Counted from the first letter of the stretch, positions 29,830 to 64,000 are shown. The stretch: 64,000 nucleotides of DNA from Chloroflexota bacterium (GCA_016191345.1 JACPOU010000001.1:339-64338); one strand, 5' to 3'. Numbers and translations: made by a program. Notes: generated from the sequence alone by a model not told the origin.

Positions 29830-29835
29830 GGGAAA

Positions 29836-33429: not shown

Positions 33430-33443
33430 CCCGCAGACGAGCC

Positions 33444-34586: not shown

Positions 34587-34753
34587 GTCGGGCTCCCCGA
34601 TGAGGGACCGCTGCGCATCGCCGACCTCCGCCCATGCTACGGATCCGGTCGGGAGTCCCCGGTCGCATAGGATAGGGGCCGTCGATCCGGGAGCGTCAAT
34701 CGGTGCGAATTTGGACGTCCCGCGGCATGGGCCTCCGCACCCCAGGTGATGAC

Positions 34754-35008
34754 ATGACGCCGAATGCGCTGACCGAGGCCTCGGATCCCGAATCCGAATT
34801 CGACTTCTCCACTCCGGAAGCCGAACGGGCCGTTCGGGAGGCGCTGGCGCTCGTTCTCGAGATCCGCGACCTCGAGACCAGCCCACTCGCTCGAAGGGTG
34901 CGGCTCTATGAGCGAACCCTCGGCCTTGCCGTGATCCCCTCGCTGCTCCGACGGGCCATCGTCGGGGCGAGAAGGAGAGGCATGTTCCGGCGCCCGGCGG
35001 CCCGATGA
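34754..35008 (+). CDS. Hypothetical small protein (84 aa), uncertain
   Basis: An ATG is preceded by AGGTGA, and third-position G/C is high across the ORF. Its stop overlaps the next gene's ATG (ATGA at 35005-35008). No family was recognised. Confidence 0.3.
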   Translation: MTPNALTEASDPESEFDFSTPEAERAVREALALVLEIRDLETSPLARRVRLYERTLGLAVIPSLLRRAIVGARRRGMFRRPAAR

Positions 35009-36243: not shown

Positions 36244-36264
36244 AACTGGGACGAGGGACGCCGG

Positions 36265-37212: not shown

Positions 37213-37214
37213 GA

Positions 37215-39160: not shown

Positions 39161-39164
39161 GGCC

Positions 39165-40217: not shown

Positions 40218-40396
40218 TCGCCGACAACCCCAGTCCCGCCTGTCATGCACGCAGCCATCGATGCGATCCCGATTCTAGATGTACTGCCCGAACACGGTTG
40301 CTCACATCCCGCACACTACACGGCAAACGTGTCCGGCCAGTCACTCTGTCCTTGGGCAACGGCTACGCGACACGCCGCGCGGGGGAACCAGGCAAC

Positions 40397-41368: not shown

Positions 41369-41520
41369 CCCCTTGACTTGACGTCGTGGACTTCGACCGA
41401 ACGTTTCGGAATACGGCTCGAACGGGGCCTCTAATCGGGAGTCTTTGAGCCAGGCGTCGAAGTACTCGGCACCCACGGTTGGGCGCGCCTCAGGTATGAG
41501 GGCGCGTCCCTGTCGCGACG

Positions 41521-43735: not shown

Positions 43736-43759
43736 GACCAGCCCCGTCCCGCCCAGCCA

Positions 43760-43785
43760 GGCAACCTCCTGCCCTGGAGGTTGCC
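43760..43785. promoter_or_regulatory. Perfect 10-bp inverted repeat GGCAACCTCC-N6-GGAGGTTGCC in a divergent intergenic region
   Basis: Read directly from the sequence. It lies 25 nt upstream of the GT2 start (43735) and about 245 nt upstream of the ThDP-enzyme start. Its function as an operator or a 5'-UTR hairpin is unknown. Confidence 0.4.
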
Positions 43786-44028
43786 TCAGAGTACAGGTTG
43801 TGGTCGTCGGTGGGCTCGAAACCGAGAGCCCGCGTCAAGGATCGCCTCCTGCTGGATGGTCGGCGAGCGTCCGATCACCATCCGGGGGCTGAACTCGCGC
43901 GTCGATGAGGCGAATCGGCGCTCACCGGAGCGACGTCCGCCCTATCCCTATAGAGTGGACGAGCACAGGGCCGACCCGAACTCGCTCATGTTTCGGCCGT
44001 GGCAGGGTTCGCAGAGGGAACAAGGTCG

Positions 44029-45753: not shown

Positions 45754-45802
45754 GCGACGATCGAGAAGACAAATATGCTGACCGGGGCGGCGAGCCGACG
45801 GC

Positions 45803-46888
45803 TTACTGGTCTCGACTGAGCGGCTGCCGTTGGATGAGGCCCCGAGCGTAGAGCGACTGGCACGTGCGGGCAAGTGCTTCACGGAGCCCGACGCGGGGGG
45901 CGTAGACCTCGTACATGCGGCCCAGATCTGGTACGTAATTGCGGGCCGGATCGCCATGCGCGCTTCGCTCGACCTCGAGCCCGCCAAAGATGCTCGCCAG
46001 GAGGTCTGCGACCTCGTCGATGCTCGCGGTGCCCTCGCGACATCCCACGTTGAAGACGTCGTAGGGAGTTTCAGACAGGAGCAGGTTGATAAGGAAGACG
46101 GCGAGATCCGTCGCGTAGCAGTAGCTACGTCGCGCTCCTCCACCGGTAGTCCTCAGTCGCCCGTTCCCGTCCGCCTGCCGAATGAGGTCGGGCACGGCGA
46201 AGCTGCTCCCGAGATCCTGATACGGACCGACCAAGGAGAAGACGCGGGCGATCCGATAGTCCAAACCGCTCAACCGGACCAGGAGTTCCGATGACCGCTT
46301 CGCCTCGCCGTAGGCAGAGCGCGGCGTGGAGATGTCGGGCGCGCCCTGATAGGTCTCGGGCAGGGCGGCCAGGTCCGCTGGCTGGTCGCCGTAGACAGCT
46401 CCGCTGCTGATGAACAGGACGCGACCCGGATCCGACGCCCTCGCGATGTCCACGACCGATGCAGTCATGCCAACCGACTCACGATAGGCGCGTCCCGGGT
46501 CCATTGAGATCCGTGCCGGGTCGGTGGGAGCTGCGCCATGGATCACATAGTCCCAGTGGCGACCCTGGAGGCTGCTCGTCAGCACCTCGGACCCCGCCAC
46601 CACGACGATCTCGTGCGCGTCCACTTGACGCCGGTATCGCGACATCAGCAAGTCGGGTTGGCGAGACGGGATCGTCAGGATGCATGGAGCCATACCGCTG
46701 AGTTCGTTGAAACGGATCACGCTTTCGACCAGGTAGCGTCCGACGAAACCGCTGCCCCCGGTCAGCAGCAGCTGCGACCCGGAGAGCTTGCGCATCAAGT
46801 CGCCGCACGTCGCAACGATACTGTCGAGGTCCTCGAGGATGACTTCATCTGGACGATCTCGTCGGTCCGTCGGAGCCCGACCATTCAT
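45803..46888 (-). CDS. Extended-SDR NAD-dependent epimerase/dehydratase/reductase
   Basis: Contains [10 protein letters not shown] and the catalytic YGEAK. Its ATG overlaps the rfbH stop (ATGA). Confidence 0.75.
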
Positions 46889-48270
46889 GCCCTGGGTCTC
46901 GGCCCTCGCCTCGCGGGGGCGATCCTGGCCCCGACGTCAAGGACGTTGACCTCCCTCCGCCGCGTGGCCTCTCGCATCTCGCTGGCGACGTAGTCGAGCA
47001 TCGGGGCGTCCAGTCCAGGAAAGACACCCACCCAGAAGGTGTTGTTCATGATGACGTCCGCGACACGCAGGTCTCCCACGACGCGAGAGGGGACCGAGGC
47101 GTACGCCGGCTGCCGGGTGAGGTTCCCCCCGAAGAGGAGCCTCGTCTTGATGCCGCGCGACTCGAGCCAGGCGATCACACCGGCGCGGCTGATTCCCACT
47201 CCTTCTCGCACCGTGATCGGGAATCCGAACCAGCTTGGATCGCTGCCCGGAGTCGCCTCGGGGAGGATGAGCTCATCTTCGAGAGGCTCGAGGGCAGCGC
47301 GCAGATAGCTGAAGTTCGTCCGCCGTCGCGCGACGAAATCGTCGAGCTTCTTGAGTTGAGCGATTCCGACCGCAGCCTGCATGTCCGTGAGCTTGAGGTT
47401 GTAGCCGATTCGACTGTACGAGTACTTGTGGTCGTAGCCATGTGGCAGCGTGCCGAGCTGCCAGTCGAAGCGCTTCCCGCAGGTATCGTCGTCACCGGGC
47501 TCGCACCAGCAGTCCCGCCCCCAGTCGCGGAAGGACTCGATGATCTTCTTGAGCGGAGGGCTGCCCGTCAGGACCGCCCCGCCCTCGCCCATGGTCATAT
47601 GGTGGGCCGGATAGAAGCTCACGGTAGACACGTCGCCGAACGTTCCCACCTTCCGGCCACGCCACGTCGATCCCACCGCGTCGCAGGTGTCCTCGACGAG
47701 CCACAGCCCGTGCTTCTCCGCGATCGCCTTGACTCGATCCAGATCGAAGGGATTGCCCAGGGTGTGAGCGAGCATGATCGCCCGCGTTCGCGGTCCCACC
47801 GCGGCCTCGATCGCGTCCGGGTCGGCGTTATACGTGGGTATGACGGAGTCGACGAAGACCGGAACGAGCCGGTTCTGGATGATCGGGTTTACGGTGGTGG
47901 GAAACCCCGCGGCGGCGGTGATCACCTCGTCCCCGGGCTTGAGCGCGCGAGCTCCAAGTTCCCCGTCGGTCAAGGTCGTCAAGGCGAGCAGGTTGGCGCT
48001 GGACCCACTGTTGACCAGGATCGCGTGACGGACGCCGATCCACCGGGCAAACTCTCGCTCGAACTGTGCCGCAAACCGCCCGGTGGTGAGCCAGAAATCG
48101 AGCGAAGCGTCGACGAGATGCTGCATCTCGTCCTCGTCGAATACCTTGCCTGAGACCGGCACGGGGGTTTCGCCGGGCCGGAAGCCCGTCCCGGCAAACG
48201 CAGCGGAGTGGTATTCGGCCACGAGGCGCAGGATCTGCGCCCGAAGCTCCGTCGCGGTCTCGCTAGCCAT
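46885..48270 (-). CDS. rfbH: CDP-6-deoxy-L-threo-D-glycero-4-hexulose-3-dehydrase (E1; RfbH/DdhC-like)
   Basis: DegT/DnrJ-fold protein with [13 protein letters not shown], where His replaces the Schiff-base Lys. It also has the E1-specific [17 protein letters not shown] (C-x-C-x7-C) Fe-S motif. Confidence 0.85.
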
Positions 48271-48288
48271 CGGCGAGGCGATCCCGCG

Positions 48289-49269
48289 TCACCCGAGCAC
48301 CGCTCGATACCAGGCAGCCGTGCGGTCAAGGCCCTGAGGGAGCGTCAGGCGCGGCATCCAACCAAGCCGGCGCCTCGCCTTCGACGAGTCAAGCCACTGA
48401 GCGGGGATTTCATTCGGAGCGTCGGACTGGATGATTGGCGCAAGATCAGCTCGGCCCATTGCCCTGCCGATCTCCTCCACGATCTGGAGTACCGCGATCG
48501 GCCGGTCGTTTCCGAAGTTGAATGCCTCGCCGCCTTCGCGCCCGGCGACGAGCGCCGCGCCGAGCGCGAGATATGCCTCGACCGCATCGTCCACGTGCAG
48601 GTAGTCGCGCTGCAGTGTGCCGTCGCTGCGGATGACCGGTGGCTCGCCGAGGATCAGCGACCGGATCGTCCCTGGAACGATCCGGTCCCAGTTGAGATCG
48701 CCACCTCCGTAGATGTTTGCGCAGCGGGCGATGGCGATCGGAAGGCCATAGCTGTTCGCGTAGGCCGAGGCCATCAGGTCAGCCATGCTCTTCGAGGCGT
48801 CGTAGATGTTGCGGCCGGCGAGTGGGTGCTCTTCGGTGTAGGGGAGTACGGCACTTTCACCGTAGGCCTTGTCACTTGAGGCGACCACTGTGGACTGGAT
48901 GGGCCGCGCACATCGGCGAACGGCCTCGAGGAGGTTGTACGTGCCGCGAACATTCGCTTCAAGGGTCGCCCATGGCTGGCGCTGGGCGTGGCGGACCTGC
49001 GTCTGGGCACCCAGATGGAAGATGACATCCACCTCGTATTGCGCCAGGATCCGTTCAAGCAGGACGACGTCCTCGAGCGCTCCATGAACCCGGGTGATTC
49101 GCCGGTCGTCGCCGCTCCGGACGAGCTCGGAGCGCGGATCCTCGTCGCGAATCAGGGCGACAACGTGGGCCCCTTGGGCGAGAAGGCTGCGGACAAGCCA
49201 GGATCCAACGATTCCGCTCGCCCCGGTGACGAACGTGGTCCGGCCATCGAAGGCACGGAGGTCAGTCAT
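48289..49269 (-). CDS. rfbG: CDP-glucose 4,6-dehydratase-like extended SDR
   Basis: Contains VTGASGIVGSWL and YDASK. The assignment relies partly on its position between rfbF (8-nt overlap) and rfbH. Confidence 0.7.
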   Translation of the reverse strand: MTDLRAFDGRTTFVTGASGIVGSWLVRSLLAQGAHVVALIRDEDPRSELVRSGDDRRITRVHGALEDVVLLERILAQYEVDVIFHLGAQTQVRHAQRQPWATLEANVRGTYNLLEAVRRCARPIQSTVVASSDKAYGESAVLPYTEEHPLAGRNIYDASKSMADLMASAYANSYGLPIAIARCANIYGGGDLNWDRIVPGTIRSLILGEPPVIRSDGTLQRDYLHVDDAVEAYLALGAALVAGREGGEAFNFGNDRPIAVLQIVEEIGRAMGRADLAPIIQSDAPNEIPAQWLDSSKARRRLGWMPRLTLPQGLDRTAAWYRAVLG

Positions 49270-50068
49270 CCCACATCTTCCACGGTGCGATCCCTTCGTC
49301 CCAAAGCCGCATCAGGTTGGTCCTGTCACGCTCCGTGTCCATCGGCTCCCAGAATCCGTGGTGGCGGTACGCCATCAGCTGCCCATCGCGCGCCAGGCGC
49401 TCCAAGGGCTCGCGCTCCAGGACCGTGCTGTCGTCGCTAAGGTACCTGAGCACCTCGTGCTCGAACACCATGAAGCCACCGTTGATCCATCCGCCTTCTG
49501 CCTGGGGTTTCTCGGCGAATTCGACCACTCGATCTCCTTCGATGCCCAGCGCCCCGAACCGGGAAGGTGGTCGAACCGCCGTTACGGTCGCCAGGCGACC
49601 GTGCGCTTCATGGAACGCCATGACGCGGTCGATCGGCACGTCGGCGACGCCGTCGCCGTATGTGACCATGAAGCGCCCTGGCAAGTAGCGCTCAAGCCGT
49701 CGGATTCGGCCGCCAGTCATCGTGTCGGGCCCCGTGTCGACGACCGTGACGCGCCATGACTCCGGCGGGCTGTCGTGCCTGAGAAGCGTCCCGGAGCGGG
49801 TCTCGACGGTGAAGTCGGCGTGGCGGTCGGCGTAGGACAGGAAGTACGCCTTGATCATGTCTCCGAGGTACCCGACGGGCAACACGAAGCGCTGGAATCC
49901 GAAGTGGTCGTAGAGCTTCATGATGTGCCAGAGGAGGGGCCGTCCACCGACTTCAACCATCGGCTTCGGGCGAAACGCAGTCTCCTCGCGGAGCCGAGTG
50001 CCGAGCCCGCCGGCGAGGATCACAACCGGGATCGTGCCATCGGGGTCGGTCACCGTGCGCGCGTCCAT
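49262..50068 (-). CDS. rfbF: Glucose-1-phosphate cytidylyltransferase
   Basis: VVILAGGLGTRLREETAFRPKPMVEVGGRPLLWHIMKLY resembles RfbF/DdhA throughout. Confidence 0.88.
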   Translation of the reverse strand: MDARTVTDPDGTIPVVILAGGLGTRLREETAFRPKPMVEVGGRPLLWHIMKLYDHFGFQRFVLPVGYLGDMIKAYFLSYADRHADFTVETRSGTLLRHDSPPESWRVTVVDTGPDTMTGGRIRRLERYLPGRFMVTYGDGVADVPIDRVMAFHEAHGRLATVTAVRPPSRFGALGIEGDRVVEFAEKPQAEGGWINGGFMVFEHEVLRYLSDDSTVLEREPLERLARDGQLMAYRHHGFWEPMDTERDRTNLMRLWDEGIAPWKMWDD

Positions 50069-50158
50069 CCGCTCCTGAGGGCGTCTCCGGTGGCCCCCGA
50101 ACGCCTCTCAACCCGCCCATCGAGCCCCGTGTCAAGGTTTCCCATCTGCAGGCGTCTC

Positions 50159-51415
50159 CTACGTATTGCTCCACCGAAGTATCGGTGCGACCGCGCCCGG
50201 GCGTCCGCCCAGGAGTGGTGATCCCCCTGGATCGCGGTCCACTTCGAAGGACACGACGCTGTCGCCGTTCACGATCCAGCGCACGTTGTGGATGCTGATT
50301 CGTGGCATGACCAGGTAGCGGCCGTCATTCAGGAGCCAGGGCGGGAGGGTGCAATCGATGGAGTTCCTGCCCCTCTTTAGGTCCGGCCACGCCTCCCGGC
50401 TCGCATCCGTCTGGTAGGAGCGGAGGACGACGCCCCCATCGCTGCTGACCAGATCAAATCCGATGCACAGTGCTGGATCGACTTCCGCCAGGTCGAATTC
50501 GAACCGTAAGCGGAGCGGGGCCTTCGTGGTGACGTGAATCGCAGGCTCGCCGTCTTCTCCCAGAACCGCAACGCGGACGAGGCGTACCCCGGCATCGCCG
50601 GGTCCCTCCCCGGGCTCCCATGTCGCAATCGCCACCGTATCCGCCTGCTGGCTCACGTAGTCGGCAACGACGGCTGCCGCATCTCCAGCGTTGACGACCC
50701 GACCAGCATCGATCTCGACTGCTGTTCGGCAGAGGCTCCGAATCGCTTGCATGTTGTGGCTCACGAGCAGGACGGTGCGTCCTCCGCCCGCGACCTCTTC
50801 CATCTTGCCCAGGCACTTCTTCTGGAACTCAGCGTCACCAACGGACAGGACTTCGTCCACGATGAGGACTTCCGGATTGAGGTGCGCCGCCACCGCAAAG
50901 GCCAGGCGAACGTACATTCCACTCGAGTAGTGCTTGACCGGCGTGTCCAGGAACCGGCCTACGCCGGAGAACTCGACGATTTCATCGAAACTACGTTTGA
51001 TCTCAATTCGCGTCATGCCGAGAATGGCGCCGTTCAACTGGATGTTCTCCCGGCCCGTGAGCTCGGCATGGAAGCCGGTGCCGACCTCGAGCAGGCTCGC
51101 GACCCGACCGTGTATCTCGACGTGGCCCTCTGTGGGTTCCGTGATGTGGGAGAGCACCTTCAGAAGCGTGGACTTCCCGGCTCCGTTCCGGCCGATGATG
51201 CCGAGGACCTCACCCTGATTGACCTCGAGATCCACGTCCCTGAGGGCCCAAAGCTCCTCGGAGGCATCAGTCGCTGCGCCGGGGTGGCGCAATCGTTCGA
51301 GTGGCCGGCGTGCCGCCTTGGCGATGGTGTCGCGGAGCGTGCGGTATTGCTCACGCTGGGCACCAATGTGGTACTTCTTGCCGAGGCCGACCGTCCGCAG
51401 GGCAACATCGCTCAT
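50159..51415 (-). CDS. wzt: Polysaccharide ABC-transporter ATP-binding protein (Wzt/TagH-like) with a C-terminal glycan-binding-type extension
   Basis: Walker A is GRNGAGKST, the signature region is YSSGM, and Walker B is LIVDEVLSVGD. About 165 extra C-terminal residues are rich in beta-strand pattern. Confidence 0.88.
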   Translation of the reverse strand: MSDVALRTVGLGKKYHIGAQREQYRTLRDTIAKAARRPLERLRHPGAATDASEELWALRDVDLEVNQGEVLGIIGRNGAGKSTLLKVLSHITEPTEGHVEIHGRVASLLEVGTGFHAELTGRENIQLNGAILGMTRIEIKRSFDEIVEFSGVGRFLDTPVKHYSSGMYVRLAFAVAAHLNPEVLIVDEVLSVGDAEFQKKCLGKMEEVAGGGRTVLLVSHNMQAIRSLCRTAVEIDAGRVVNAGDAAAVVADYVSQQADTVAIATWEPGEGPGDAGVRLVRVAVLGEDGEPAIHVTTKAPLRLRFEFDLAEVDPALCIGFDLVSSDGGVVLRSYQTDASREAWPDLKRGRNSIDCTLPPWLLNDGRYLVMPRISIHNVRWIVNGDSVVSFEVDRDPGGSPLLGGRPGAVAPILRWSNT

Positions 51416-51418
51416 CTG

Positions 51419-54227
<2,809 letters not shown>

Positions 54228-54297: not shown

Positions 54298-55707
54298 TCA
54301 GCGGCCACTCCTCCCGATCATTGCCGGGATGGTCCGGGCCATGATCTTCATGTCCAGCCAGAACGACCACCGGTCGATGTACTCAAGATCCGCCGCGACC
54401 CAGCGGTCGAAGTCCTGCTCGTCGCGAGCCCTCACCTGCCACAGCCCAGTGATGCCGGGCTTCATCGACAGTCGCCGCCGGTGCCAGACGTCATAGCCGG
54501 CGACCTCGGACGGAAGTGGTGGCCGGGGCCCGACGAGGCTCATCGAGCCGGCGAGCACGTTCCAGAGCTGCGGCAACTCGTCGAGGGACGTGCGACGGAG
54601 CCAGCGTCCGACGTGGGTGATCCGCGGGTCATTCGTGATCTTGAAGGCATGGCCGCGGATCTCGTTCTGGTGGAGCAGGTCGTCCAGCTGCTCCTCCGCG
54701 CCGTCCACCATGGTCCGGAACTTGACGACCTCGAAGGTCCGACCGTGAAGTCCCACCCGTGTCTGGCGGAACATGATCGGTCCGCGCGAGTCACGACGGA
54801 TGAGGATGGCGATCACGAGGGCGAACGGCGCCGCGACGATGAGCCCGAGCGTCGCCCCGACGACGTCGATGGCTCGCTTGGCGATCATCCCGACGACGCG
54901 GTCCGGGCCCGACACGATCGAGTAGATCGGGACACCGGCGAATTCCTCGACGCGCCCGGTGGCGAGCGTGTGCTCCAGGTGGTACATCGGGATCCGGACG
55001 ATCTTGCCCTCCTCCTCGCACAGGCGGGCGATGTCGTCGATTCGGGACCACTGGCTGACCGGGAGGCAGATGGCCACCTCGTCGACGACCTGGCTGTGCA
55101 GGACGTGCTCGATGTTTCCGAGGGTCCCGAGGATCGGCCGGGAGGCAACCGAGGGTTCAGGCCCGCCGGGGTCGAGATGCCCGATCGCACGCAGTCCGAG
55201 CGCGTGATGCGAATCGACGAGATCCGCGAAGGCCTCGGCCCAGGCGTTGACGCCGACGATCAGGAGGAAGCGGGTGTTCCGGCCGCGCTCGCGAAGGCGC
55301 CAGAGGACCCAGCGCAGGAGGAGCCGCGTTGCCTGGGCGGTCACCGCCAGGGCCGGGAAGACCAGGAGCAGGACCTGCCGGCTGACGTCGGGGAGCTTGA
55401 GGAGGAACAGGAGGCTGAGCAGTCCGGCGGCGAAGATGAGCGCGGCTCGGACCACGTCCACCAGCTCGCTCGTAGCCCGAAGCCGCGCCCTGGGCCGGTA
55501 GAGGCCCTGGCTCCACAGGGCGACGGGCCACGCGGTCGCGTAGACGACCAGGGCAAGGACGGGATTCGGAAGGCCCAGGAAGAGCGGGTCGAACGGCTGC
55601 AGGGTGCCGTAGCGGATCACCCCGGCGATCGCGAGAATGGCGATGGCCGACGTCCCATCGATCACGGCGAGGAGCAGCCGGAGCGCGGTGGCGTAGCGTC
55701 TGATCAC
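54298..55707 (-). CDS. Polyprenyl-phosphate glycosylphosphotransferase (WbaP/WcaJ-type bacterial sugar transferase), priming enzyme
   Basis: N-terminal TM helices, a central domain, and a C-terminal catalytic domain with RRDSRGPIMFRQTRVG...FEVVKFRTM...DELPQLWNVL...SLVGPRP. Confidence 0.88.
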   Translation of the reverse strand: MIRRYATALRLLLAVIDGTSAIAILAIAGVIRYGTLQPFDPLFLGLPNPVLALVVYATAWPVALWSQGLYRPRARLRATSELVDVVRAALIFAAGLLSLLFLLKLPDVSRQVLLLVFPALAVTAQATRLLLRWVLWRLRERGRNTRFLLIVGVNAWAEAFADLVDSHHALGLRAIGHLDPGGPEPSVASRPILGTLGNIEHVLHSQVVDEVAICLPVSQWSRIDDIARLCEEEGKIVRIPMYHLEHTLATGRVEEFAGVPIYSIVSGPDRVVGMIAKRAIDVVGATLGLIVAAPFALVIAILIRRDSRGPIMFRQTRVGLHGRTFEVVKFRTMVDGAEEQLDDLLHQNEIRGHAFKITNDPRITHVGRWLRRTSLDELPQLWNVLAGSMSLVGPRPPLPSEVAGYDVWHRRRLSMKPGITGLWQVRARDEQDFDRWVAADLEYIDRWSFWLDMKIMARTIPAMIGRSGR

Positions 55708-55835: not shown

Positions 55836-57224
55836 TTGACGACCTCGACCACGCTCGAGGCCACGCGTCGCCCAGCGGTGGCCGCCTTCCTCTCGTTTCT
55901 CTTCCCCGGCCTCGGCCAGCTTGCCGCCGGTCGCCGGCGCGCGGCCGCGGTCTTTGCCGTCCCGACGCTCCTCATCCTGCTCTACATCGCCGCCCGGCTC
56001 GTCGGCCGCCTGGACGTGGCCGCGATCACGATGCTGGACCCGGCGTTCGCGGCGTTCGTGTTCTTCGCGGTCGTCGCACTGGCCGGGTGGCGGGCCATCG
56101 CCGTGGTGGACGCCTGGCGGCAATCGCCGGTGCCCCCAGCGCCGCCGGCGCCGCCACCGGCCCGCCGGGCCCAGGGCGTCCTCGCCGGGCTGCTCATCGC
56201 GATCCTCCTGAGCCACGGGCTCGTCGGGTACTACGCCTGGGCGTTCTACGACGCCGGCTCCACGATCTTCGGCGTCGGCCCGGATCCCACGGCATCGCCG
56301 ATGGTCCCGACGCCGTCACCGGACCCGCAGGCGACCCCGGGCGAGCCGACCGCGACCCCCGTCGCGACACCGCCGCCCAGCGACCGGATCTCCATCCTGC
56401 TCACCGGCGTGGATTCGTCGCCGAACCGGACCACCGCCAACACGGACACGATGCTCGTGATCAGCGCGAGCCCGTCGAAGGGGACCGTCGCGATGATCAG
56501 CGTCCCGCGCGACATCGCCCAGTTCCCGTTCTATCTTGGGGGCACGTACAACGACAAGTTGAATTCGTTGCAGGCGGCGGCCCGGAACAACCCGAAGAAG
56601 TACCCGGATGGGCCGCTGACCCTCGCAAAGCAGCTCGAATTCCTGCTGGGAATCCCCATCCAGTACACGGCCTCGGTCAACCTCGCCGGCTTCGAGCGGA
56701 TGATCGACCTCGTGGGTGGCGTCGACGTCCAGGTGGAGCGCTCCATCACCGACCCGACCTACGACTGGTTCGACGGGACGTACGGGTTCTTCCTGAAAGC
56801 CGGCAAGCGCCACCTCGACGGCCGGACGGCCCTCGCCTATGTCCGCAGCCGCATGGGCGCCGGGGACAATGACTTCACCCGGGCGGCCCGCCAGCAGCAG
56901 CTCCTGGTCGCGGTCAAGGGCAAGCTCACCGACCCGGGCGTCCTCGCCAAGCTGCCCGAGCTGCTCAAGGTCGCGAGCCGGACGGTCACCACGAACGTCC
57001 CACCCGAGAAGGCGCGCGAGTACCTCCAGCTCGCGGGGACCATCGACGAGTCGAACATCAGCCGCTTCGTCCTGGGGCCGCCCTACGCGGTCCACCCGCC
57101 GACGAACACGACCGGCGGCATCTACATCCTCCGCCTGGACCTCGCCAAGGTCGCGGCCCTCTCGGTGGAGCTCTTCGGCAGCGACAGCCGGTACTTTGGT
57201 CCTGTGGCCTCGCCCTCGCCCTAG
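55836..57224 (+). CDS. LCP (LytR-CpsA-Psr) family glycopolymer-peptidoglycan ligase
   Basis: An N-terminal TM region is followed by ILLTGVDS...NTDTMLVIS..., VSVPRD and YVRSR...DFTRAARQQQLL. The TTG start is uncertain. Confidence 0.85.
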   Translation: MTTSTTLEATRRPAVAAFLSFLFPGLGQLAAGRRRAAAVFAVPTLLILLYIAARLVGRLDVAAITMLDPAFAAFVFFAVVALAGWRAIAVVDAWRQSPVPPAPPAPPPARRAQGVLAGLLIAILLSHGLVGYYAWAFYDAGSTIFGVGPDPTASPMVPTPSPDPQATPGEPTATPVATPPPSDRISILLTGVDSSPNRTTANTDTMLVISASPSKGTVAMISVPRDIAQFPFYLGGTYNDKLNSLQAAARNNPKKYPDGPLTLAKQLEFLLGIPIQYTASVNLAGFERMIDLVGGVDVQVERSITDPTYDWFDGTYGFFLKAGKRHLDGRTALAYVRSRMGAGDNDFTRAARQQQLLVAVKGKLTDPGVLAKLPELLKVASRTVTTNVPPEKAREYLQLAGTIDESNISRFVLGPPYAVHPPTNTTGGIYILRLDLAKVAALSVELFGSDSRYFGPVASPSP

Positions 57225-58357
57225 TGGTGACAATGGGCACCATGGACAAGGCCCGCGCGCTCAGCCTGATCGCCCTCCTCGTCGCCGGCTGCGCGTCCGC
57301 GCCGAGCATCCAGCCGACACCGGTCGATTCGCCGAGCGTGCCACCGGCGACCGGGACACCCGGGCTGTCAACGCCCGGGTCGTCGCCGAGCGCGACCGTC
57401 GAACCCACGCCGACCGCCGAACCGGGGGCGACGGCGTACGCGGCGCTCGATGGGCTGCTGGTCGACGCGTCGGCCGCCAACCGGCTGCCGCTCGCGGTGA
57501 TGATCGACGACAACGTGCTGGCCCGGCCGCAGTCCGGCTTCAACGCCGCGTCCATCGTCTACCAGGCGCCCGCCGACGGCGGCGAGGACCGCTACATGCT
57601 GGTCTTCCAGGAACGGGACGCGGCGGACGTCGGCCCGGTCCGCAGCGGACGACCGTATTTCGTCTACTGGGCAGCGGAATACCGCGCTGGCTTCGCCCAC
57701 TACGGCGGTGACGAGAAGACGCGCCTCAAGGTGATCCCGTCCGTTGCGGGAAAGCTGATGTACGACCTGGACGCCCTGGCCGGCAGCAGCCGCGCCTTCC
57801 ACCGGATCAGCAGCCGCGACGCCCCGCACAACGCCTACACCTCCACCGCCGACCTCTACGCCACGTCGGCCCGCCGCGGTGCGCCCGACGCGATGGTCGC
57901 CGGCCTCGCGACGCGCCCGTTCAAGGACGACGCACCCCTCGCCGACCGGCCCGCCAAGGGCTCCATCACCGTCCCGTACAACCGCGGCGCGACCGGCTAC
58001 ACCTACGACCCGGCGACGAACAGCTACCTGCGCTCGGTCGCCGGCAAGGCCCAGAACGACGCGGCCGACGGCAAGCGCGTCGTGGCCCGGAACGTCGTGG
58101 TGCTCTTCATGGCGCTCTCCATCGACCCGGAATCGGAGGCGGGCTACAACCGCCCGGTGCTCGCCCAGATCGGCAAGGGAACGGCTTGGGTCTTCCGCGA
58201 CGGGACCGTCGTCAAGGGCACCTGGCGCAAGGACGACAAGGGCGCGCTGACGCGATTCTTCGACGCCTCCGGGGCGGAGGTCAGCCTCAATCGCGGGTCG
58301 ATCTTCATCCAGGTGGTCCCCACGGGCACGAAGGTGACGTTCAGCGCTCCGGGCTGA
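57224..58357 (+). CDS. DUF3048 domain-containing lipoprotein
   Basis: The signal peptide has the lipobox LLVAGC. PLAVMIDDNVLARPQSGFNAASIVYQAPADGG is typical of DUF3048. The true start is probably ATG 57233 or 57242, within the ORF that opens at GTG 57224. Confidence 0.75.
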   Translation: MVTMGTMDKARALSLIALLVAGCASAPSIQPTPVDSPSVPPATGTPGLSTPGSSPSATVEPTPTAEPGATAYAALDGLLVDASAANRLPLAVMIDDNVLARPQSGFNAASIVYQAPADGGEDRYMLVFQERDAADVGPVRSGRPYFVYWAAEYRAGFAHYGGDEKTRLKVIPSVAGKLMYDLDALAGSSRAFHRISSRDAPHNAYTSTADLYATSARRGAPDAMVAGLATRPFKDDAPLADRPAKGSITVPYNRGATGYTYDPATNSYLRSVAGKAQNDAADGKRVVARNVVVLFMALSIDPESEAGYNRPVLAQIGKGTAWVFRDGTVVKGTWRKDDKGALTRFFDASGAEVSLNRGSIFIQVVPTGTKVTFSAPG

Positions 58358-58366
58358 TCCGTCGGC

Positions 58367-59779
58367 CTAGCCGACCTTGACGCCCACCATCCCGAGCAGG
58401 CTGACCCCGAGCAGCACCGCGTCGAGCACGATCACGAGGCCCACGGCGCCCCAGGCCAGCACGTTCGCGACGCGTCCGTTGCGGTGCCGGCCCATGATCC
58501 GGCCGTCGTTGACGAGCAGGACCATGAAGACGAGCACGATCGGCAGCAGCAGGCCCTGGAGGTTCTGCGAGGCGACGATGAGCGGCAGCAGGTCGAGCCC
58601 CGGGATGAGCACGACGAGCGCGCCGAGGCCCAGCACGAACGTGTAGATCCCGAAGAATGCCCGGGCGTCCTCGAAGCGCTTGTCCACGCCCGATTCCCAT
58701 CCGAACGCCTCGCAGATCACGAACGCCGTCGAGATCGGCATGATCGTCGCCGCGAGCACGGACGCCCCGAACAGCCCCACGGCGAAGAGCGCGGTGGAGA
58801 GCTGGCCGGCGACCGGCCCGAGGGCCCGCGCCGCGTCCTCCGCGGTCTCGATCCGCCCGCCCACGGCGTGGATCGTCGTGGCCGTCGCGACGACGACGAA
58901 GACGGCGATGACGTTCGTCCAGATCGCCCCGCCGACGGCATCCGCCTGCTCGAGCCTGAGCTCCTCCTCGCCGATGCCCTTCTCGGCGACCGCGCTCTGG
59001 AGGTAGAACTGCATGTACGGGGTGATCGTCGTGCCGACGACGGCGACCATGAGCAGCACGACGGATGGGCTCACGTCGAGGCGCGGCGTGACGAGCGCCC
59101 GGCCGACCGCACCCCAGTCCGGGCCGGCGAGGAACGCCGACGCGATGTAGGCCAGGAACACGACGATGACTGACAGGAAGACCCGCTCGACGGTCCGGTA
59201 GCTCGCGTAGAGGACCAGCGCCCAGATCGAGACGCCGACGACCGGCACGGTCAGCCAGCGCGGAATGCCGAAGATCTCGAGGGCCGCCGCCGCGCCGGAG
59301 AACTCGGCGACGGTGTTGGCCAGGTTCGCGATGAGCAGGACGACCATCGCGAAGGCCGTCCAGCGGACCCCGAACCGGTCGCGGATGAGGTCGGACAGGC
59401 CCTGGCCCGTGACGACGCCCAGCCGGGCGGCCATCTCCTGGACGATCGCGAGGATGACGATCGTGACCGGGAAGAGCCACAGCAGTCCCAGGCCGGTCCG
59501 CGCCCCGAGGACGCTGTACGTCGCGATGCCGCCGGCATCGTTGCCGGCGATGCCGGCGATGAGCCCCGGGCCCATGACGGCGAGGAAGGCGAGGAGGCCG
59601 CGCCGGCCCCGGAAGCGGCCGCGGAGCCGCAGCCAGTCCCCGGACTCCACCCGGTCTCGCAGTCGCCCCAGGATCCCGATCTGGGGTACGGGCAGGGGCG
59701 TCCGCCGCCGCCTGGCCTTGGCGACGGCGTCGCGGGCCCCGGATTCGGCGCGGCGGGCGAGCGGCGGCAGCTGCGGCAC
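58367..59779 (-). CDS. NRAMP/SLC11-family transporter with non-canonical metal-site residues
   Basis: A 470-aa polytopic protein alignable to MntH. The TM1 motif is N-D81-A-G-G84 instead of D-P-G-N. The TM6 motif is G-T250-T-I-T253-P-Y255 instead of G-A-x-x-M-P-H. Confidence 0.85.
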   Translation of the reverse strand: MPQLPPLARRAESGARDAVAKARRRRTPLPVPQIGILGRLRDRVESGDWLRLRGRFRGRRGLLAFLAVMGPGLIAGIAGNDAGGIATYSVLGARTGLGLLWLFPVTIVILAIVQEMAARLGVVTGQGLSDLIRDRFGVRWTAFAMVVLLIANLANTVAEFSGAAAALEIFGIPRWLTVPVVGVSIWALVLYASYRTVERVFLSVIVVFLAYIASAFLAGPDWGAVGRALVTPRLDVSPSVVLLMVAVVGTTITPYMQFYLQSAVAEKGIGEEELRLEQADAVGGAIWTNVIAVFVVVATATTIHAVGGRIETAEDAARALGPVAGQLSTALFAVGLFGASVLAATIMPISTAFVICEAFGWESGVDKRFEDARAFFGIYTFVLGLGALVVLIPGLDLLPLIVASQNLQGLLLPIVLVFMVLLVNDGRIMGRHRNGRVANVLAWGAVGLVIVLDAVLLGVSLLGMVGVKVG

Positions 59780-59794
59780 GATCGGGCTCCGGCC

Positions 59795-61054
59795 CTACGT
59801 CCGGCCGGCGAGGCGCGGCAGGCGCTTCCGCCAGGCGTCGGGGAGGATGGCGTCCATGGCGTCGTCCACGGTCACGATGCCCACGAGGTGGCGGCTCGCA
59901 TCGACGACCGGCACGGCCAGCAGGTTGTAGTGGGCGACGACTTCGGCGACCTCGTCCTCGTCGGCGAGGACGCCCACGGTCACGGGCTCCGGGATCATGA
60001 CCGCGGAGATCGGCGCGTCCGGCCGCGAGACGATGAGGTCGCGAAGCGAAAGTACCCCGGCCAGGCGGTCCTCGTCGTCGGTCACGTAGACGTAGTAGAT
60101 CGTCTCCGCGTCCGGCTCCAGCTCACGCAGCCGGTCGATCGCCTGGGCGCAGGTGAGGGACGCCGGGAGGGCGACGAACTCGGTCGTCATCATCCCGCCG
60201 GCCGTGTCCTCGGGGTAGGCGAGGAGCTCCCCGAGCTCCTCGGCCTCGTCTCGCTCCATGAGGGCGAGGATCTCCTCGCGGGTTTCGTCGGACAGGTCGG
60301 CCACGAGGTCCGCGGCGTCGTCCGGCGACATCTCCTCGAGGATGTCCGCCGCGCGCGCGGGATCGAGGTCCTCGAGGACCTCCACCTGGGTCTCGGGCTC
60401 CATCTCCTCGAAGACGTCGGCCGCGGCCTCGTCGTCCAGCGAGGCGAGGACGCCGGCCCGGTCGCGCGGCGCCAGCTGGTCGATGATCGTCGCGAGGTCC
60501 GCCGGGTGGAGCTCGGCGAGGCCGGCGTGCGGGACCCGCAGCTTGATCGAGGCGATGGACGTCTCGACGGGGTCCACGTCCTCCCAGTCGATGTAGCGCT
60601 CCGGGACGGCGACCTTGAGATTCCGGGCCAGCGTCCGGAACCTGCGCTCGATCCCGAGGCGGCGGAGGAGCCCGGCCGCGCCCACGTCAACCGCGACGAG
60701 GTGGAGCCGGCCCTCGATCTCGTCGAGCCGGAGGTCGTTGACCCGGACGACCTTGCGGCCGTCGATGTCGACGATCTGCTTGTCCATCAGGTCCGCCTTG
60801 AGGCGGATCTCGTTCGGACGCTGGGCGAACTTTCCGATGTCGATCGTGCGGGTCGCGAGGCGGACGCCGGACATGTCGAACTGGGCGACCGAGGACCAGG
60901 GCAGGAAGATGCCGCGCCGGTCCGTCTCGACGACGAGCCCGGTCACGGGCGGGTAGCGGTCGCCGACGGCGACGATCAGGTCGGCGACCTTGCCGATCGC
61001 CTCGCCGTTGCCGTCGAGCACGGGCCGGCCGATCGCCTGGCTCAGGTAGAGCAT
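59795..61054 (-). CDS. Soluble PRC-barrel (x2) + MgtE N-terminal domain + CBS-pair protein (MgtE cytosolic module without the membrane domain)
   Basis: PRC-like segments are AIGRPVLDGNGEAIGKVADLIV and LMDKQIVDIDGRKVVRVNDLRL. An acidic MgtE_N-type helical repeat follows (HPADLATII...EVLEDL...ADILEEM...AADLVADL), then two CBS motifs. The protein ends where the MgtE TM helices would begin. Confidence 0.85.
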   Translation of the reverse strand: MLYLSQAIGRPVLDGNGEAIGKVADLIVAVGDRYPPVTGLVVETDRRGIFLPWSSVAQFDMSGVRLATRTIDIGKFAQRPNEIRLKADLMDKQIVDIDGRKVVRVNDLRLDEIEGRLHLVAVDVGAAGLLRRLGIERRFRTLARNLKVAVPERYIDWEDVDPVETSIASIKLRVPHAGLAELHPADLATIIDQLAPRDRAGVLASLDDEAAADVFEEMEPETQVEVLEDLDPARAADILEEMSPDDAADLVADLSDETREEILALMERDEAEELGELLAYPEDTAGGMMTTEFVALPASLTCAQAIDRLRELEPDAETIYYVYVTDDEDRLAGVLSLRDLIVSRPDAPISAVMIPEPVTVGVLADEDEVAEVVAHYNLLAVPVVDASRHLVGIVTVDDAMDAILPDAWRKRLPRLAGRT

Positions 61055-61271
61055 CTGCCACCTCGCGTGCGGCCGTGCCGCCGCCGGGGTGGTGGGCGGG
61101 CCCCGGAGGGCCCGGCATCACGCTCGGATGGCGGAACGGACCGTCGAGTCGGGCGCGCGCCGCGCGCCCTCGGGACTGGGTCCGGTCTCCACGACGGGAG
61201 CGATCCTCCGAAGCGAACTGAACGGCTCCCGGGCGCGGTCGGCTGGGCTGCTGCGGACGGGGACCGGGCCG

Positions 61272-61301
61272 AGTGTAGATGGCGCCCCGCGGGTCGGTCA
61301 A
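61272..61301 (-). promoter_or_regulatory. Putative promoter (-35 TTGACC, 18-nt spacer, -10 TACACT) for the MgtE_N/CBS-NRAMP operon
   Basis: The minus strand reads TTGACCGACCCGCGGGGCGCCATCTACACTCGGCC. It would give a ~210-nt leader before ATG 61054. It shares the 12-mer CTACACTCGGCC with the trpS upstream region. Confidence 0.35.
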
Positions 61302-61336
61302 CGCGAGCCGGCGAGCCTGGCGGTGGTGCACGGACC

Positions 61337-61372
61337 GGTACTTCCGGCGCCCCCCGGGTGGTACTTCCGGCG
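61337..61372. repeat. Two exact copies of GGTACTTCCGGCG, 23 nt apart centre to centre
   Basis: The copies are at 61337-61349 and 61360-61372, read directly from the sequence. They lie about 40-70 nt upstream of the proposed GGDEF-gene start and are a candidate transcription-factor site. Confidence 0.6.
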
Positions 61373-61409
61373 GCTGCCTCCGCGGCCCCTGCGCTGCGAC
61401 CCTCTCTTC

Positions 61410-63485
61410 GTGCGCGTGCAACTGCAGCTCGATCCGGCGCCCGGGGCGGGGGACCGCTACCGCGCGCTCCTCGAGATGGCCGAACGGATGTCGACCTCGG
61501 TCGACCAGGGCGACCTCAACGCCGTGGTCGTCGATGCCGCGCGCCGCCTCATGGACGCGGATCTCGTGCTCCTGCGGGTCCTCCGGGGGGAGGTCCTCGA
61601 GCTCGTCGGCTACGCCGGCATCGATGCCGGGACGGTCGCCGCGCTGCCGCCGCTCACGACGTCCGAGCCCTGGCTCCAGGAGGCGCTCCGCGCCGGCCGG
61701 GCGTGGGCCCTCGACGACGTGGAGGCCCCCGGCGCATTGCCGCACGCCGCCCGCTTCACCGCCGGCCTGCCGATCCGGGGTGACCTCTTCGTCCCGCTCG
61801 TCCACGGCAACCGCCTCATCGGGTCGCTGACGGCGGCCACGAACGAGCCCCGGGCGTGGACGGCCGAGGACGCGGAGCTGATGACCGCACTCGGGATCCA
61901 CGTCGCGGTGGCGCTCCGGAACGCGGAGCTCTTCGACCACCTGGGCGCGCGGGCCGCGCAGATGGCCGTCGTCCAGGCCGCCTCGGCCCGGATGAACCGG
62001 GCGAAGAGCGTCGACTCGGTCGGCCGCGCGATCGTCGAGGAGGTCGGCCGGATCGTCGCCTACCACAACGCCCGGGTCTACCTCGTCGAGAACGGCGAGG
62101 ACCTCGTCCCGATCGCCTTCGAGGGGACCGTCGGTGCGTACGAGATCGTGGACTGGAACGTCCTCCGGGCGAAGGTCGGGGAGGGGTTCACGGGCTGGGT
62201 CGCCGCCCACGGCACGCCACTCCTGATCCCCGATGCGAACGCCGATCCGCGCGGCGTCCAGATCGCGGGCACGGACGAGGTCCCCGAATCGATGCTCGTC
62301 GTCCCGATGCGCCACGACACGATCGTGGGCGTCATCACCCTCTCGAAGCTTGGCCTCCGGCAGTTCGACGAAGACGACCTCCAGGTCCTGATGATCCTCG
62401 CCGACCAGGCCGCCACGGCCCTCGAATCGGCTCGCCTCCTGAGCCGGACGGAATCGATGGCGGAGGAGCTCCGGCGACTGCTCGAGATGAGCCAGGAGCT
62501 CGCCCAGACGCTCGACCCGAAGCAGGTCGGCGCGGTCATCGCCAGGCACCTGACGGTCGCCCTCGGCGTGGATGCCTGCGCGATCAGCTCCTTCGACCCG
62601 GACGGTGACCGGATCCTGTCCCTCGGGGAGTACCCGGAGGTCGGCTTCGTCCAGAAGCATCCCGAGTACGCCCTGTCGGACTATCCCGAGACCCGGCGGG
62701 TCCTGGCGACCCAGGCGACCGTCGTCGTCGACGTCGAGGACGAGACGGCCGACGCCGGGGAGCGTGCCCTCCTGCGCGAGACGGGCCACCGCCTGCTGGC
62801 GATGATCCCGCTCATCGCCAAAGGCCAGCCGGTCGGGCTCGTCGAGCTGCTCTCGGTCGAGAACCGCCCGCTCGACGACAGCCGCCTGGCCCTCGCCCGG
62901 ACGATGGCCAACGAGGCCGCGATGGCGCTCGAGAACGCGCGCCTCTACGAGGCCGCCCGGTCCCTCGCCGACCGCGACCCGCTGACCGGCTTCTTCAACC
63001 ACCGCTTCCTCTACGAGCGGCTCGGCGAGGAGATCGTCCGCTCGCGTCGCAGCCGGCGCCCGCTGAGCCTGCTGATGCTCGACCTCGACGACTTCAAGCT
63101 CGTGAACGACACCTTCGGCCACCAGTTCGGCGACCGCTGCCTCGTCCACCTTGCCGAGATCGTCCGGTCGACGCTCCGCCAGTCGGACGTGCCGGCCCGC
63201 TACGGCGGCGACGAGTTCGCGGTCATCCTGCCGGACGCCGACCTCGCGGCCGCGGAGGCCGTGGCTGCCCGGATCATCGAGGAGCTCGCGAGCCATCCGC
63301 TCGTGGCCGATGGCCGCGGCCCCGTGCCGGTCAGCGTGTCCATCGGCGTGGCGACGGTCGGTGATGCCGTGCGGACCCCGACGGAGCTCGTCGGGGCGGC
63401 CGATGCCCGGATGTACGAGGCGAAGACCGGGGGGGCCCAGGCAACCGCCGTCGACCGGATCGCCGTCGCCCTCGCCGCCGGCTAG
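61410..63485 (+). CDS. Multi-GAF-domain diguanylate cyclase (GGDEF)
   Basis: Three to four GAF-like modules (...TLSKLGLRQFDEDDLQVL...) precede a C-terminal GGDEF domain with DPLTGFFNHR, LLMLDLDDFKLVND and RYGGDEFAV. The GTG start at 61410 is inferred; the ORF is open from 61089. Confidence 0.85.
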   Translation: MRVQLQLDPAPGAGDRYRALLEMAERMSTSVDQGDLNAVVVDAARRLMDADLVLLRVLRGEVLELVGYAGIDAGTVAALPPLTTSEPWLQEALRAGRAWALDDVEAPGALPHAARFTAGLPIRGDLFVPLVHGNRLIGSLTAATNEPRAWTAEDAELMTALGIHVAVALRNAELFDHLGARAAQMAVVQAASARMNRAKSVDSVGRAIVEEVGRIVAYHNARVYLVENGEDLVPIAFEGTVGAYEIVDWNVLRAKVGEGFTGWVAAHGTPLLIPDANADPRGVQIAGTDEVPESMLVVPMRHDTIVGVITLSKLGLRQFDEDDLQVLMILADQAATALESARLLSRTESMAEELRRLLEMSQELAQTLDPKQVGAVIARHLTVALGVDACAISSFDPDGDRILSLGEYPEVGFVQKHPEYALSDYPETRRVLATQATVVVDVEDETADAGERALLRETGHRLLAMIPLIAKGQPVGLVELLSVENRPLDDSRLALARTMANEAAMALENARLYEAARSLADRDPLTGFFNHRFLYERLGEEIVRSRRSRRPLSLLMLDLDDFKLVNDTFGHQFGDRCLVHLAEIVRSTLRQSDVPARYGGDEFAVILPDADLAAAEAVAARIIEELASHPLVADGRGPVPVSVSIGVATVGDAVRTPTELVGAADARMYEAKTGGAQATAVDRIAVALAAG

Positions 63486-63570
63486 TACGAAGGTACTGCC
63501 CCGGACCCCGTACGCCCGTACCACCCCGCGGCTGGACGTCCGGGCAGCTCCGGGCTCATCCTTGGGCGAC

Positions 63571-64000
63571 GTGAATACCGGGTCGCGACGCTCGCTCCGC
63601 CAGTCGGTGGAGGACCGTCCCATCCGGCGGACATGGTGGCTCCTGTCCGGCGCGTTCGTCCTGCTCGCCGCCATCACGGGCACGCGCGCCCTGACCTCCG
63701 GGGAGCCGCTCGACTGGGTGCCCGTTCTCGCGGTCGGCTTCGCGGCCCTTGCGGCCATCGCCCACCGCAACGCGGTCGCCAACCTCGAGGCCCGGGGGCG
63801 CGGCGAGGCGGAGAACTTCGCCCGCATCCTCCAGGGCCTCGCCCGATCCGTGTCCGTGGACGCGATCGTCGGCGCGATCGTCGACGACCTGGCGGAGGGG
63901 ACGGGCGCGGACCACGTCGTCGTGGTTCGGCGGCGCCCCGAGGGCCACGCGCTCGAGGCGACCCTCGTCACTCGCCGGCCGGGCGTCCCGAACTCGACGA
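63571..64000 (+). CDS. Partial CDS (3' end outside the window): membrane-anchored protein beginning a GAF-like domain
   Basis: My manual translation from GTG 63571 gives VNTGSRRSL...TWWLLSGAFVLLAAITG...WVPVLAVGFAALAAIA...ILQGLARSVSVDAIVGAIVDDLAEGTGADHVVVV with no stop to the window end. This shows two TM helices and then the GAF-like start. TTG 63562 is an alternative start. Confidence 0.5.
   Translation, partial: MNTGSRRSLRQSVEDRPIRRTWWLLSGAFVLLAAITGTRALTSGEPLDWVPVLAVGFAALAAIAHRNAVANLEARGRGEAENFARILQGLARSVSVDAIVGAIVDDLAEGTGADHVVVVRRRPEGHALEATLVTRRPGVPNST

Follow-up and report, generated by a model that had tools for sequence, protein, structure and literature searches.

We analysed a 64,000-nucleotide stretch of DNA from a Chloroflexota bacterium (Candidatus Limnocylindrales), called the window here and used for all coordinates, and studied two neighbouring genes on its minus strand that form a two-gene nrmT operon. 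The first gene encodes a soluble accessory protein with two PRC barrels, an MgtE_N domain and a CBS pair, and the second encodes a permease of the SLC11/NRAMP fold that is assigned by its sequence to the NRAMP-related Mg2+ transporters (NRMTs). An earlier note on this DNA had described an NRAMP-like permease gene and a PRC-PRC-MgtE_N-CBS gene without transmembrane (TM) helices, 15 nucleotides apart, and both open reading frames (ORFs) were confirmed where it had placed them (Table 1). The ATG of the accessory gene follows its GAGGTGG box by six bases, and no intrinsic terminator-like sites were found inside the accessory-permease unit. The unit is flanked on one side by genes for a GDP-mannose dehydratase, a sugar transferase, an LCP protein and a DUF3048 protein and on the other side by a divergent GAF-GGDEF cyclase gene. 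As these flanking genes are unrelated to it, the unit was taken to be an operon of two genes. The accessory and permease genes are translationally linked, lying close together here and often overlapping elsewhere, and their pairing is far beyond chance because it recurs in dozens of unrelated genomes.

Table 1. Positions of the operon, its leader, the encoded domains and neighbouring genes in window numbering
Feature	Position	Strand	Basis
Accessory gene (PRC-PRC-MgtE_N-CBS-CBS soluble protein, 419 aa, ATG start)	59795..61054	-	
NRMT-type permease gene (SLC11/NRAMP fold, 470 aa, GTG start)	58367..59779	-	
Intergenic spacer of 15 nt with GGAG ribosome-binding site of permease	59780..59794	-	
PRC barrel 1, residues 1-66	60857..61054	-	Pfam PRC residues 2-56; beta strands in AF2 model
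PRC barrel 2 with helical insert, residues 82-162	60569..60811	-	YlmC/YmxH-type match, AF2 model
MgtE_N helical domain, residues 182-283	60206..60511	-	Pfam
CBS pair, residues 288-404	59843..60193	-	Pfam
Basic C-terminal tail WRKRLPRLAGRT, residues 408-419, in place of acidic MgtE plug helix	59798..59833	-	
Promoter-like site TTGACC-N18-TACACT	61272..61301	-	Consensus scan, aligned loci
GGAGGA Shine-Dalgarno-like box of the upstream ORF (uORF), then CTCC able to pair with it	61204..61209	-	
Predicted leader uORF: GTG start at 61192, METGPSPEGARRAPDSTVRSAIRA, TGA stop 61120..61118, 24 codons	61118..61192	-	
CCGGACC, uORF codons 3-5, 5' arm of predicted helix inside uORF	61179..61185	-	RNAalifold, centroid fold
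GGTCCG, 3' arm of predicted helix inside uORF	61137..61142	-	Nucleotide-level conservation
CCACC, possible anti-Shine-Dalgarno element	61088..61092	-	Complementary to GGTGG
Shine-Dalgarno site of accessory gene, GAGGTGG	61058..61064	-	
GDP-mannose 4,6-dehydratase gene	53211..54227		
Sugar transferase gene	54298..55707		
LCP protein gene	55836..57224		

The permease and its soluble partner

The permease matched the Pfam Nramp model with an E value of 2.4e-91. Its best match among all PDB sequences was EleNRMT from Eggerthella lenta (7qia; E 1.6e-115, 390 bits, 48% identity), as compared to about 1e-28 and about 103 bits for Deinococcus MntH (DraNramp), 4e-11 for the plant Al3+ transporter NRAT and 2e-11 for human NRAMP1. 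The MntH subfamily model gave 134 bits against a cut-off of 430. The first transmembrane helix (TM1) reads G79-N80-D81-A-G-G84-I, which is identical to GNDAGGI in EleNRMT and lacks the canonical DPGN, and DAGG was found in 74 of 81 NRMT relatives. The sixth (TM6) reads G249-T250-T-I-T253-P-Y255-M and lacks the canonical A-x-x-M-P-H. T250 stands in place of the canonical Ala and aligns with EleNRMT T224, the Met position is T253 (Ala in EleNRMT) and the His position is Y255, and Q405 in helix 10 aligns with EleNRMT Q379 and was invariant in the NRMT alignment. Together the scores and motifs place the permease in the NRMT clade, and they agree with the earlier note, which had read it as a non-canonical NRAMP and had correctly linked loss of the TM1 Asn and the TM6 Met to NRMTs. 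Two TM6 types were common among the 81 relatives, TTIAPW as in EleNRMT (39) and TTITPY as in the window (26), and the TTITPY type includes Clostridium loci in which the operon lies under the M-box Mg2+ riboswitch.

Database names for the two products, 'Mn2+/Fe2+ NRAMP family transporter' and 'CBS domain-containing protein', would suit an ordinary proton-coupled MntH with an unrelated CBS protein next to it by chance. The MntH subfamily score falls far below its cut-off, the similarity to EleNRMT greatly exceeds that to MntH, none of the metal-site residues Asn, Met and His is kept, and the accessory gene adjoins the permease gene in 74 of 78 loci (see below). We considered this explanation already refuted by the sequence evidence and give it next to no credence.

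EleNRMT transports Mg2+ and Mn2+ but not Ca2+, without H+ coupling (PMC8806188), and its T224 is an added ligand needed far more for Mg2+ than for Mn2+ transport (Ramanadane et al. 2022, eLife). The likeness of the window permease to EleNRMT extends across the whole membrane domain and includes NDAGG, the T224 and Q379 equivalents and the lack of the TM6 His, which was the sole SLC11 proton-pathway position mapped. By analogy with EleNRMT and CabNRMT we infer that the permease imports hydrated Mg2+ (and Mn2+) without proton coupling. It differs from EleNRMT in carrying Thr for Ala at the former Met position and in an Arg-rich N-terminal extension of about 60 residues.

In the accessory protein, Pfam identified MgtE_N (E 4e-29), two CBS stretches (E 6e-15) and PRC (E 1e-11), with two PRC stretches at E<=0.01 and one at E<=0.001. 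Sequence support for the second PRC barrel was weaker and came from the additional Pfam stretch at E<=0.01 and a YlmC/YmxH-type match over residues 88-123 (E 0.0013). The NCBIfam model TIGR00400 (mgtE) was matched at positions 26-252 of 450 only (212.6 against a cut-off of 232.75), indicating that the MgtE membrane part is absent, and the Pfam scan of the protein gave no match to the MgtE membrane domain PF01769. Residues 177-407 matched the cytosolic domain of Thermus thermophilus MgtE with an E value of 7e-46. An AlphaFold (AF2) model built with 52 diverse sequences reached a mean predicted local distance difference test score (pLDDT) of 86.8 and contained beta modules at residues 1-66 and 82-162, a disordered linker at 163-175, the helical N domain and the CBS pair. 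It replaced an earlier run on 32 near-identical sequences in which pLDDT was 65 and the second PRC barrel was unresolved. The model was superimposed on Mg2+-bound MgtE (2yvy) with a TM-score of 0.86 (normalised to the target) and a root-mean-square deviation of 2.0 A.

The Pfam and TIGR00400 matches and the superposition all support a complete cytosolic MgtE module joined to PRC barrels and free of membrane helices, as had been proposed for the upstream protein. Compared with the T. thermophilus MgtE channel (PDB 2yvy/2zy9), the N and CBS domains keep the same relative arrangement, whereas the plug helix and membrane domain are missing and two PRC barrels are added N-terminally. Any partner pore in the window would be an unrelated LeuT-fold carrier made from a separate gene. 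Basic C-terminal tails like that of the window protein were seen in many lineages, though not in all. We hold the identities given here for the permease and the accessory protein with high confidence.

Conservation of the gene pair and of the accessory module

One genome per GTDB species was scanned with an NRMT alignment. Of 600 candidate stretches, 587 were confirmed to contain relatives. Of the 80 loci retained, two were cut at the NRMT gene and could not be judged, leaving 78 loci evaluable for a neighbourhood of 6 kb. The 80 loci came from Chloroflexota, Bacillota, Nitrospirota, Myxococcota, Syntrophales and other Desulfobacterota, Acidobacteriota, Bacteroidota, Ignavibacteria, Zixibacteria, Margulisbacteria, Patescibacteria and DPANN archaea. 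The accessory gene was adjacent to the NRMT gene in 74 of the 78, lying directly upstream on the same strand in 71 (65 complete, 6 cut by a contig end) and downstream in 3. It was absent within 6 kb in the other 4, which were three Clostridium loci and one Desulfomonilaceae locus. The predicted distance from the accessory stop to the NRMT start was short in most loci, from 4-nucleotide overlaps to a few tens of nucleotides. An apparent in-frame fusion of the two genes in one locus (L034) was rejected as an artefact of ORF extension, as stop codons separate the genes. The pairing of an MgtE_N/CBS gene with an NRAMP gene that had been noticed at this one locus is thus found in many phyla, and the accessory protein and the NRMT are nearly obligate partners in bacterial phyla as well as in DPANN archaea.

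When 54 diverse accessory proteins were screened with Pfam, MgtE_N was found in all 54, CBS in all 54 and PRC in 50, and therefore the PRC-PRC part is integral to the family. The most invariant residues of the family lie in or just after the second PRC barrel (D91, Q93, D96, R104, N106, D107, G125, R131 and R132). They fall within residues 91-132 (DKQIVD..G.KV.RVNDL ... VDVG.RGLLRRLG), which cover part of the barrel and the helix after it and are outside the Mg2+-binding MgtE part. The invariant surface of this barrel and the basic tail could, as a speculation, be the elements that contact the NRMT.

The PRC-PRC region alone was searched against 1.84 billion representative proteins, which gave 2349 matches, and the best 150 of the 2349 were sorted by size. 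Among these best 150, 48 proteins were 400-479 residues long (the soluble accessory type), 14 were 580-660 residues, 33 were at most 210 residues (stand-alone PRC-PRC proteins or fragments) and 55 were of intermediate length, many of them probably gene fragments. In the 580-660-residue class the Pfam MgtE membrane domain was matched in 4 of the 6 proteins scanned, and several predicted membrane helices followed the CBS pair in 13 of the 14, with a single segment in the remaining one. Residues 1-417 of the accessory protein were 47% identical to the cytoplasmic part of a 593-residue PRC-PRC-MgtE_N-CBS-MgtE(TM) channel. Because this match runs from end to end, the accessory protein corresponds to the whole cytoplasmic module of a PRC-extended MgtE subfamily, minus the pore. 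The full-length proteins of this subfamily differ from it in having their own 5-helix MgtE pore. Representatives of about 600 residues were P0266, P0276, P0287, P0292, P0315, P0332, P0334, P0337, P0339, P0340, P0347, P0349 and P0376, with P0266, P0276, P0292 and P0339 used for the full-length comparison. The hydrophobic C-terminal domains of P0347 and P0349 were not recognised by the Pfam MgtE model, and P0382 is a 643-residue variant with no predicted membrane segment. No paper describing the PRC-extended MgtE subfamily was found in the searchable literature.

A predicted leader peptide in front of the operon

A sigma-70-like promoter was found about 220 nucleotides upstream of the accessory ATG (one site against 0.1 expected in shuffles), and the same -35 and -10 boxes occur at the aligned position in related Limnocylindrales-type loci. 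The leader that would result is roughly 210 nucleotides long (61055..61265, minus strand) and had no Rfam match. Neither the M-box (RF00380) nor any other Rfam family was detected in the whole window at the gathering threshold or in 60900..61700 at E<=10. The GGAGGA box in the leader was kept in 13 of 13 closely related loci and in 87 distinct metagenome leaders. Eleven nucleotides after it comes an invariant GTGGAGACCGGACCCAG block common to the window and all 12 closest genome loci, and an in-frame leader ORF of 21-32 codons was present in 13 of 13 loci. The uORF pattern ME[TNS]GP[SR]...V[RLH]P[AV]...stop (METGPS...VRPA), with 21-36 codons, was found in the window and in loci L001-L012 and L081-L200. 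A pattern scan of metagenome contigs gave 120 matches, 93 of them with an accessory gene start within about 200 nucleotides downstream; the remaining matches were mostly chance, with aberrant ORFs. The genuine leaders comprised 87 distinct sequences.

Conservation of the predicted uORF was assessed in these leaders. An in-frame stop within 20-36 codons was present in 87 of 87 leaders in frame 0 as compared to 9 of 87 in each other frame, and TGA, TAG and TAA were all used as the stop among the pattern matches. Of the 74 leaders with a GGTCC anchor, 73 carry it in frame with the GTG, across 11 spacer lengths of which 10 were in frame (binomial p about 7e-34). At the level of sequence, this conservation of reading frame and stop is a coding signature of the leader uORF. 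The Val codon was GTC in 79 of 82 leaders. The codon before it varied in its amino acid yet ended in G in every case. The codons flanking Val thus keep only the bases that complete GGTCC, indicating that GGTCC is constrained as RNA. A helix within the uORF is predicted from the complementarity between the invariant GGACC of codons 4-5 and the invariant GGTCC.

A riboswitch was also considered for the leader and received little support. RNAalifold on 13 leaders returned only the GGACC/GGTCC helix with no compensatory changes, and covariation is unobtainable for this helix since both arms are invariant. The single-sequence fold of the leader was no more stable than its shuffles (z -0.74). A uORF fits these results better. 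Downstream of the uORF are a variable hairpin, the CCACC element and a GGCGGG...CCCGCC hairpin. CCACC was present in about 90% of leaders and may pair with GGTGG in the main ribosome-binding site, to which it is complementary.

The same full-length leader, with a uORF of 36 codons, was also found before a CorA gene in two contigs (L108:9772-11201, plus strand, and L163:147-1572, minus strand), and the genes behind it matched Pfam CorA with E values of 1e-57 and 1e-59. The leader is thereby tied to Mg2+ homeostasis by evidence that does not involve NRMT. In six Bacillota loci an M-box stands before the accessory-NRMT operon at the position equivalent to the leader. The M-box (ykoK, RF00380) therefore occupies in Bacillota the place that the predicted uORF leader takes in the window, and it gives independent support for a link of the operon to Mg2+. 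The loci that lack the accessory gene (L024, L061, L053 and L054) are mostly Clostridium, and in two of them the M-box directly precedes the NRMT gene (L024:5653-5818 and L061:5955-6118), suggesting that RNA-level control can substitute for the protein partner.

In enterobacteria the mgtA and corA leaders contain the short uORFs mgtL and corL, and translation of these controls Rho-dependent termination according to Mg2+ (PMC11552253). The window leader is like these in having a short Pro-containing uORF in a structured 5' leader and in serving two transporter families with one leader type. It differs in phylum, and no sequence similarity was evident by inspection alone. By this analogy the Chloroflexota leader looks like an independent invention of the mgtL/corL kind, and its uORF probably sets operon expression according to Mg2+ supply as the M-box does in Bacillota. 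If this is true, the leader would be functionally analogous to mgtL/corL and would stand in for the M-box, placed on two unrelated Mg2+ importers, and a leader peptide common to NRMT operons and CorA genes would suggest uORF-based Mg2+ control beyond enterobacteria, in a distant uncultured soil phylum.

The divergent gene beside the leader encodes a GAF-GAF-GAF-GGDEF diguanylate cyclase (61089..63485, plus strand), and its annotated GTG start would overlap the leader and promoter of the operon. The true start of the cyclase is probably further downstream, as the first GAF domain begins near residue 146.

A possible Mg2+-sensing regulator of the transporter

The earlier note had supposed that this combination was undescribed, and that claim did not hold. 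Shin et al. (2014, PLoS Genet, PMC4072509) reported that most NrmT genes adjoin a gene for the MgtE N-terminal cytoplasmic domain (their Fig. S5), that this MgtE-like fragment is split in two in C. acetobutylicum, and that it may exert cytoplasmic feedback regulation of transport or a metal chaperone effect. The gene pair, its order and the feedback hypothesis are the same as in the window. The PRC barrels are not mentioned in that study, and the window comes from Chloroflexota and has the conserved leader uORF instead of an M-box. The window is therefore another member, in a different phylum, of an operon type known since 2014 and adds no new system; what it contributes beyond that is modest, namely the PRC domains and the relation to full-length PRC-MgtE channels. 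No work on the accessory protein after Shin et al. was found in the searchable literature, and a PRC barrel together with MgtE is mentioned nowhere in that literature, including Shin et al. The later NRMT and Slc11 literature, as far as it was readable, does not discuss the partner; the EleNRMT study (Ramanadane et al. 2022) dealt with the transporter alone. The function of the accessory protein has gone unexamined for a decade save for one negative co-expression experiment.

The most likely function of the accessory protein would be that of a Mg2+-sensing subunit of the NRMT. In MgtE the cytoplasmic domain takes a compact form on binding Mg2+, relaxes without it and gates the pore (Maruyama et al. 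2018). Its cytoplasmic ligands, with numbering checked against the Ile labels of that paper, are E258 (Mg2), D259 (Mg3), D91/D247 (Mg4), D226/D250 (Mg5), D95 (Mg6) and E59 (Mg7) (Maruyama et al. 2018). Alignment to the accessory protein showed that the Mg4 ligands are kept as D245/D398 and the Mg6 ligand as D249, while the Mg7 ligand is kept as an acidic residue, D213. Across 65 NRMT-linked homologues the N-domain ligand positions were E/D in 62, D in 48 and D in 62. At high cytoplasmic Mg2+, ions would link the acidic N domain to the CBS pair through these Mg4/Mg6/Mg7-type sites, and the compact module would dock on the cytoplasmic face of the NRMT and slow import. At low Mg2+ the module would relax and release the transporter, and the leader uORF with its internal RNA helix would set expression by Mg2+ supply. 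An NRMT in one operon with a soluble Mg2+-sensing regulator, under a leader set by Mg2+, is the best explanation as a whole and one that we consider fairly probable.

Several findings weigh against this explanation. The Mg5 site is only half kept in the accessory protein (D226 is N377, D250 is D401), and the plug-helix sites Mg2 and Mg3 (E258, D259) are absent. In MgtE these plug-helix sites couple sensing to the pore. With the plug helix and both sites lost, any coupling to NRMT must take another route than in MgtE. As the PRC-PRC module is found in cis with an MgtE pore as well, it is not an adaptor specific to NRMTs, and no natural accessory-NRMT fusion of about 850 residues was found among the best 150 of the 2349 PRC-PRC matches. 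Some Clostridium NRMT genes have no accessory gene at all. In B. subtilis, Mg2+ rescue by the Acidobacterium capsulatum NrmT was no better when the fragment from that species was co-expressed, the fragment was dispensable for Mg2+ rescue by the C. acetobutylicum proteins, and A. capsulatum NrmT fully rescued a Mn2+ uptake defect and only weakly a Mg2+ defect (PMC4072509). CabNRMT and EleNRMT work without the fragment (PMC4072509, PMC8806188), and no member has been shown to have a physical interaction or gating.

By analogy with MgtE, gating of the NRMT by the accessory protein may be regarded as an even question. Of the two-component Mg2+ uptake system that the earlier note had proposed, the NRMT clade, the MgtE module, the conserved operon and the M-box link to Mg2+ stood, while the gating mechanism and strict Mg2+ selectivity are unproven because of the null co-expression result and the Mn2+ rescue by A. 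capsulatum NrmT.

Roles in chaperoning, buffering or other signalling also stay open, given that co-expression had no effect, that NRMTs act on their own in vitro and that natural fusions are lacking. The accessory protein could then be a Mg2+ or nucleotide (ATP) sensor for some other target, a metal buffer or chaperone at the NRMT exit, or an assembly or stability factor, rather than a gate. A chaperone was among the alternatives listed by Shin et al. (PMC4072509), NRMTs function alone in cells and in liposomes, and CBS pairs commonly bind adenine nucleotides, as do many of the proteins that Foldseek matched to the accessory model. The position of the most invariant residues, in the second PRC barrel instead of at the MgtE Mg2+ sites, may reflect some conserved binding function. 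The accessory and NRMT genes are nearly always adjacent and translationally linked in many phyla, however, which argues for a direct partnership, and the same module is covalently joined to an ion pore in the PRC-MgtE channels, where the cytoplasmic domain is known to gate. We consider a role other than gating unlikely.

A second alternative concerns the metal rather than the partner. The physiological substrate could be Mn2+, or both metals equally, with the accessory protein responding to Mn2+ and not to Mg2+. The rescue pattern of A. capsulatum NrmT, whose operon also lacks an M-box, is consistent with this, as are the absence of an M-box from the window and the transport of Mn2+ as well as Mg2+ by EleNRMT. 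Against it, the permease keeps T250, the equivalent of the EleNRMT residue that matters far more for Mg2+, and shares its TM6 variant with Clostridium operons controlled by an M-box. The window-type leader also precedes genes for CorA Mg2+ transporters, and MgtE-type acidic sites are retained in the accessory protein. A Mn2+ system therefore appears quite improbable, and a Mg2+-sensing partner of an NRMT is preferred.

Two broader proposals are linked to each other, and we advance the pair tentatively, as possible but somewhat short of probable. The leader would be an undescribed Mg2+-responsive attenuator of Chloroflexota that acts on both the NRMT operon and CorA, and PRC-PRC-MgtE_N-CBS would be a portable Mg2+-gating module that acts in cis when joined to an MgtE pore and in trans when paired with an NRAMP-fold carrier. 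If true, this would be the first case in which two permeation domains of unrelated structure are regulated by the same cytoplasmic sensor. The survey sharpens the question of what the accessory protein does, with a near-obligate partnership, a four-domain module that has two conserved PRC barrels and the same module fused to MgtE pores, and together its results give clear constructs and predictions for structural and transport work.

Elsewhere in the window, three very long ORFs that overlap the real genes on the opposite strand or in another frame (58341..59480, minus strand; 59888..61783, plus strand; 60687..63971, minus strand; 379, 631 and 1094 residues) were rejected as Arg/Pro/Gly-rich artefacts of 72% G+C. 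The G+C fraction was 0.62-0.68 across 28001..54000 as compared to 0.71-0.75 in the remaining window. Polysaccharide and envelope genes lie at the right end of this low-G+C stretch and just beyond it (Table 1), and the stretch could be a horizontally acquired glycan cluster.

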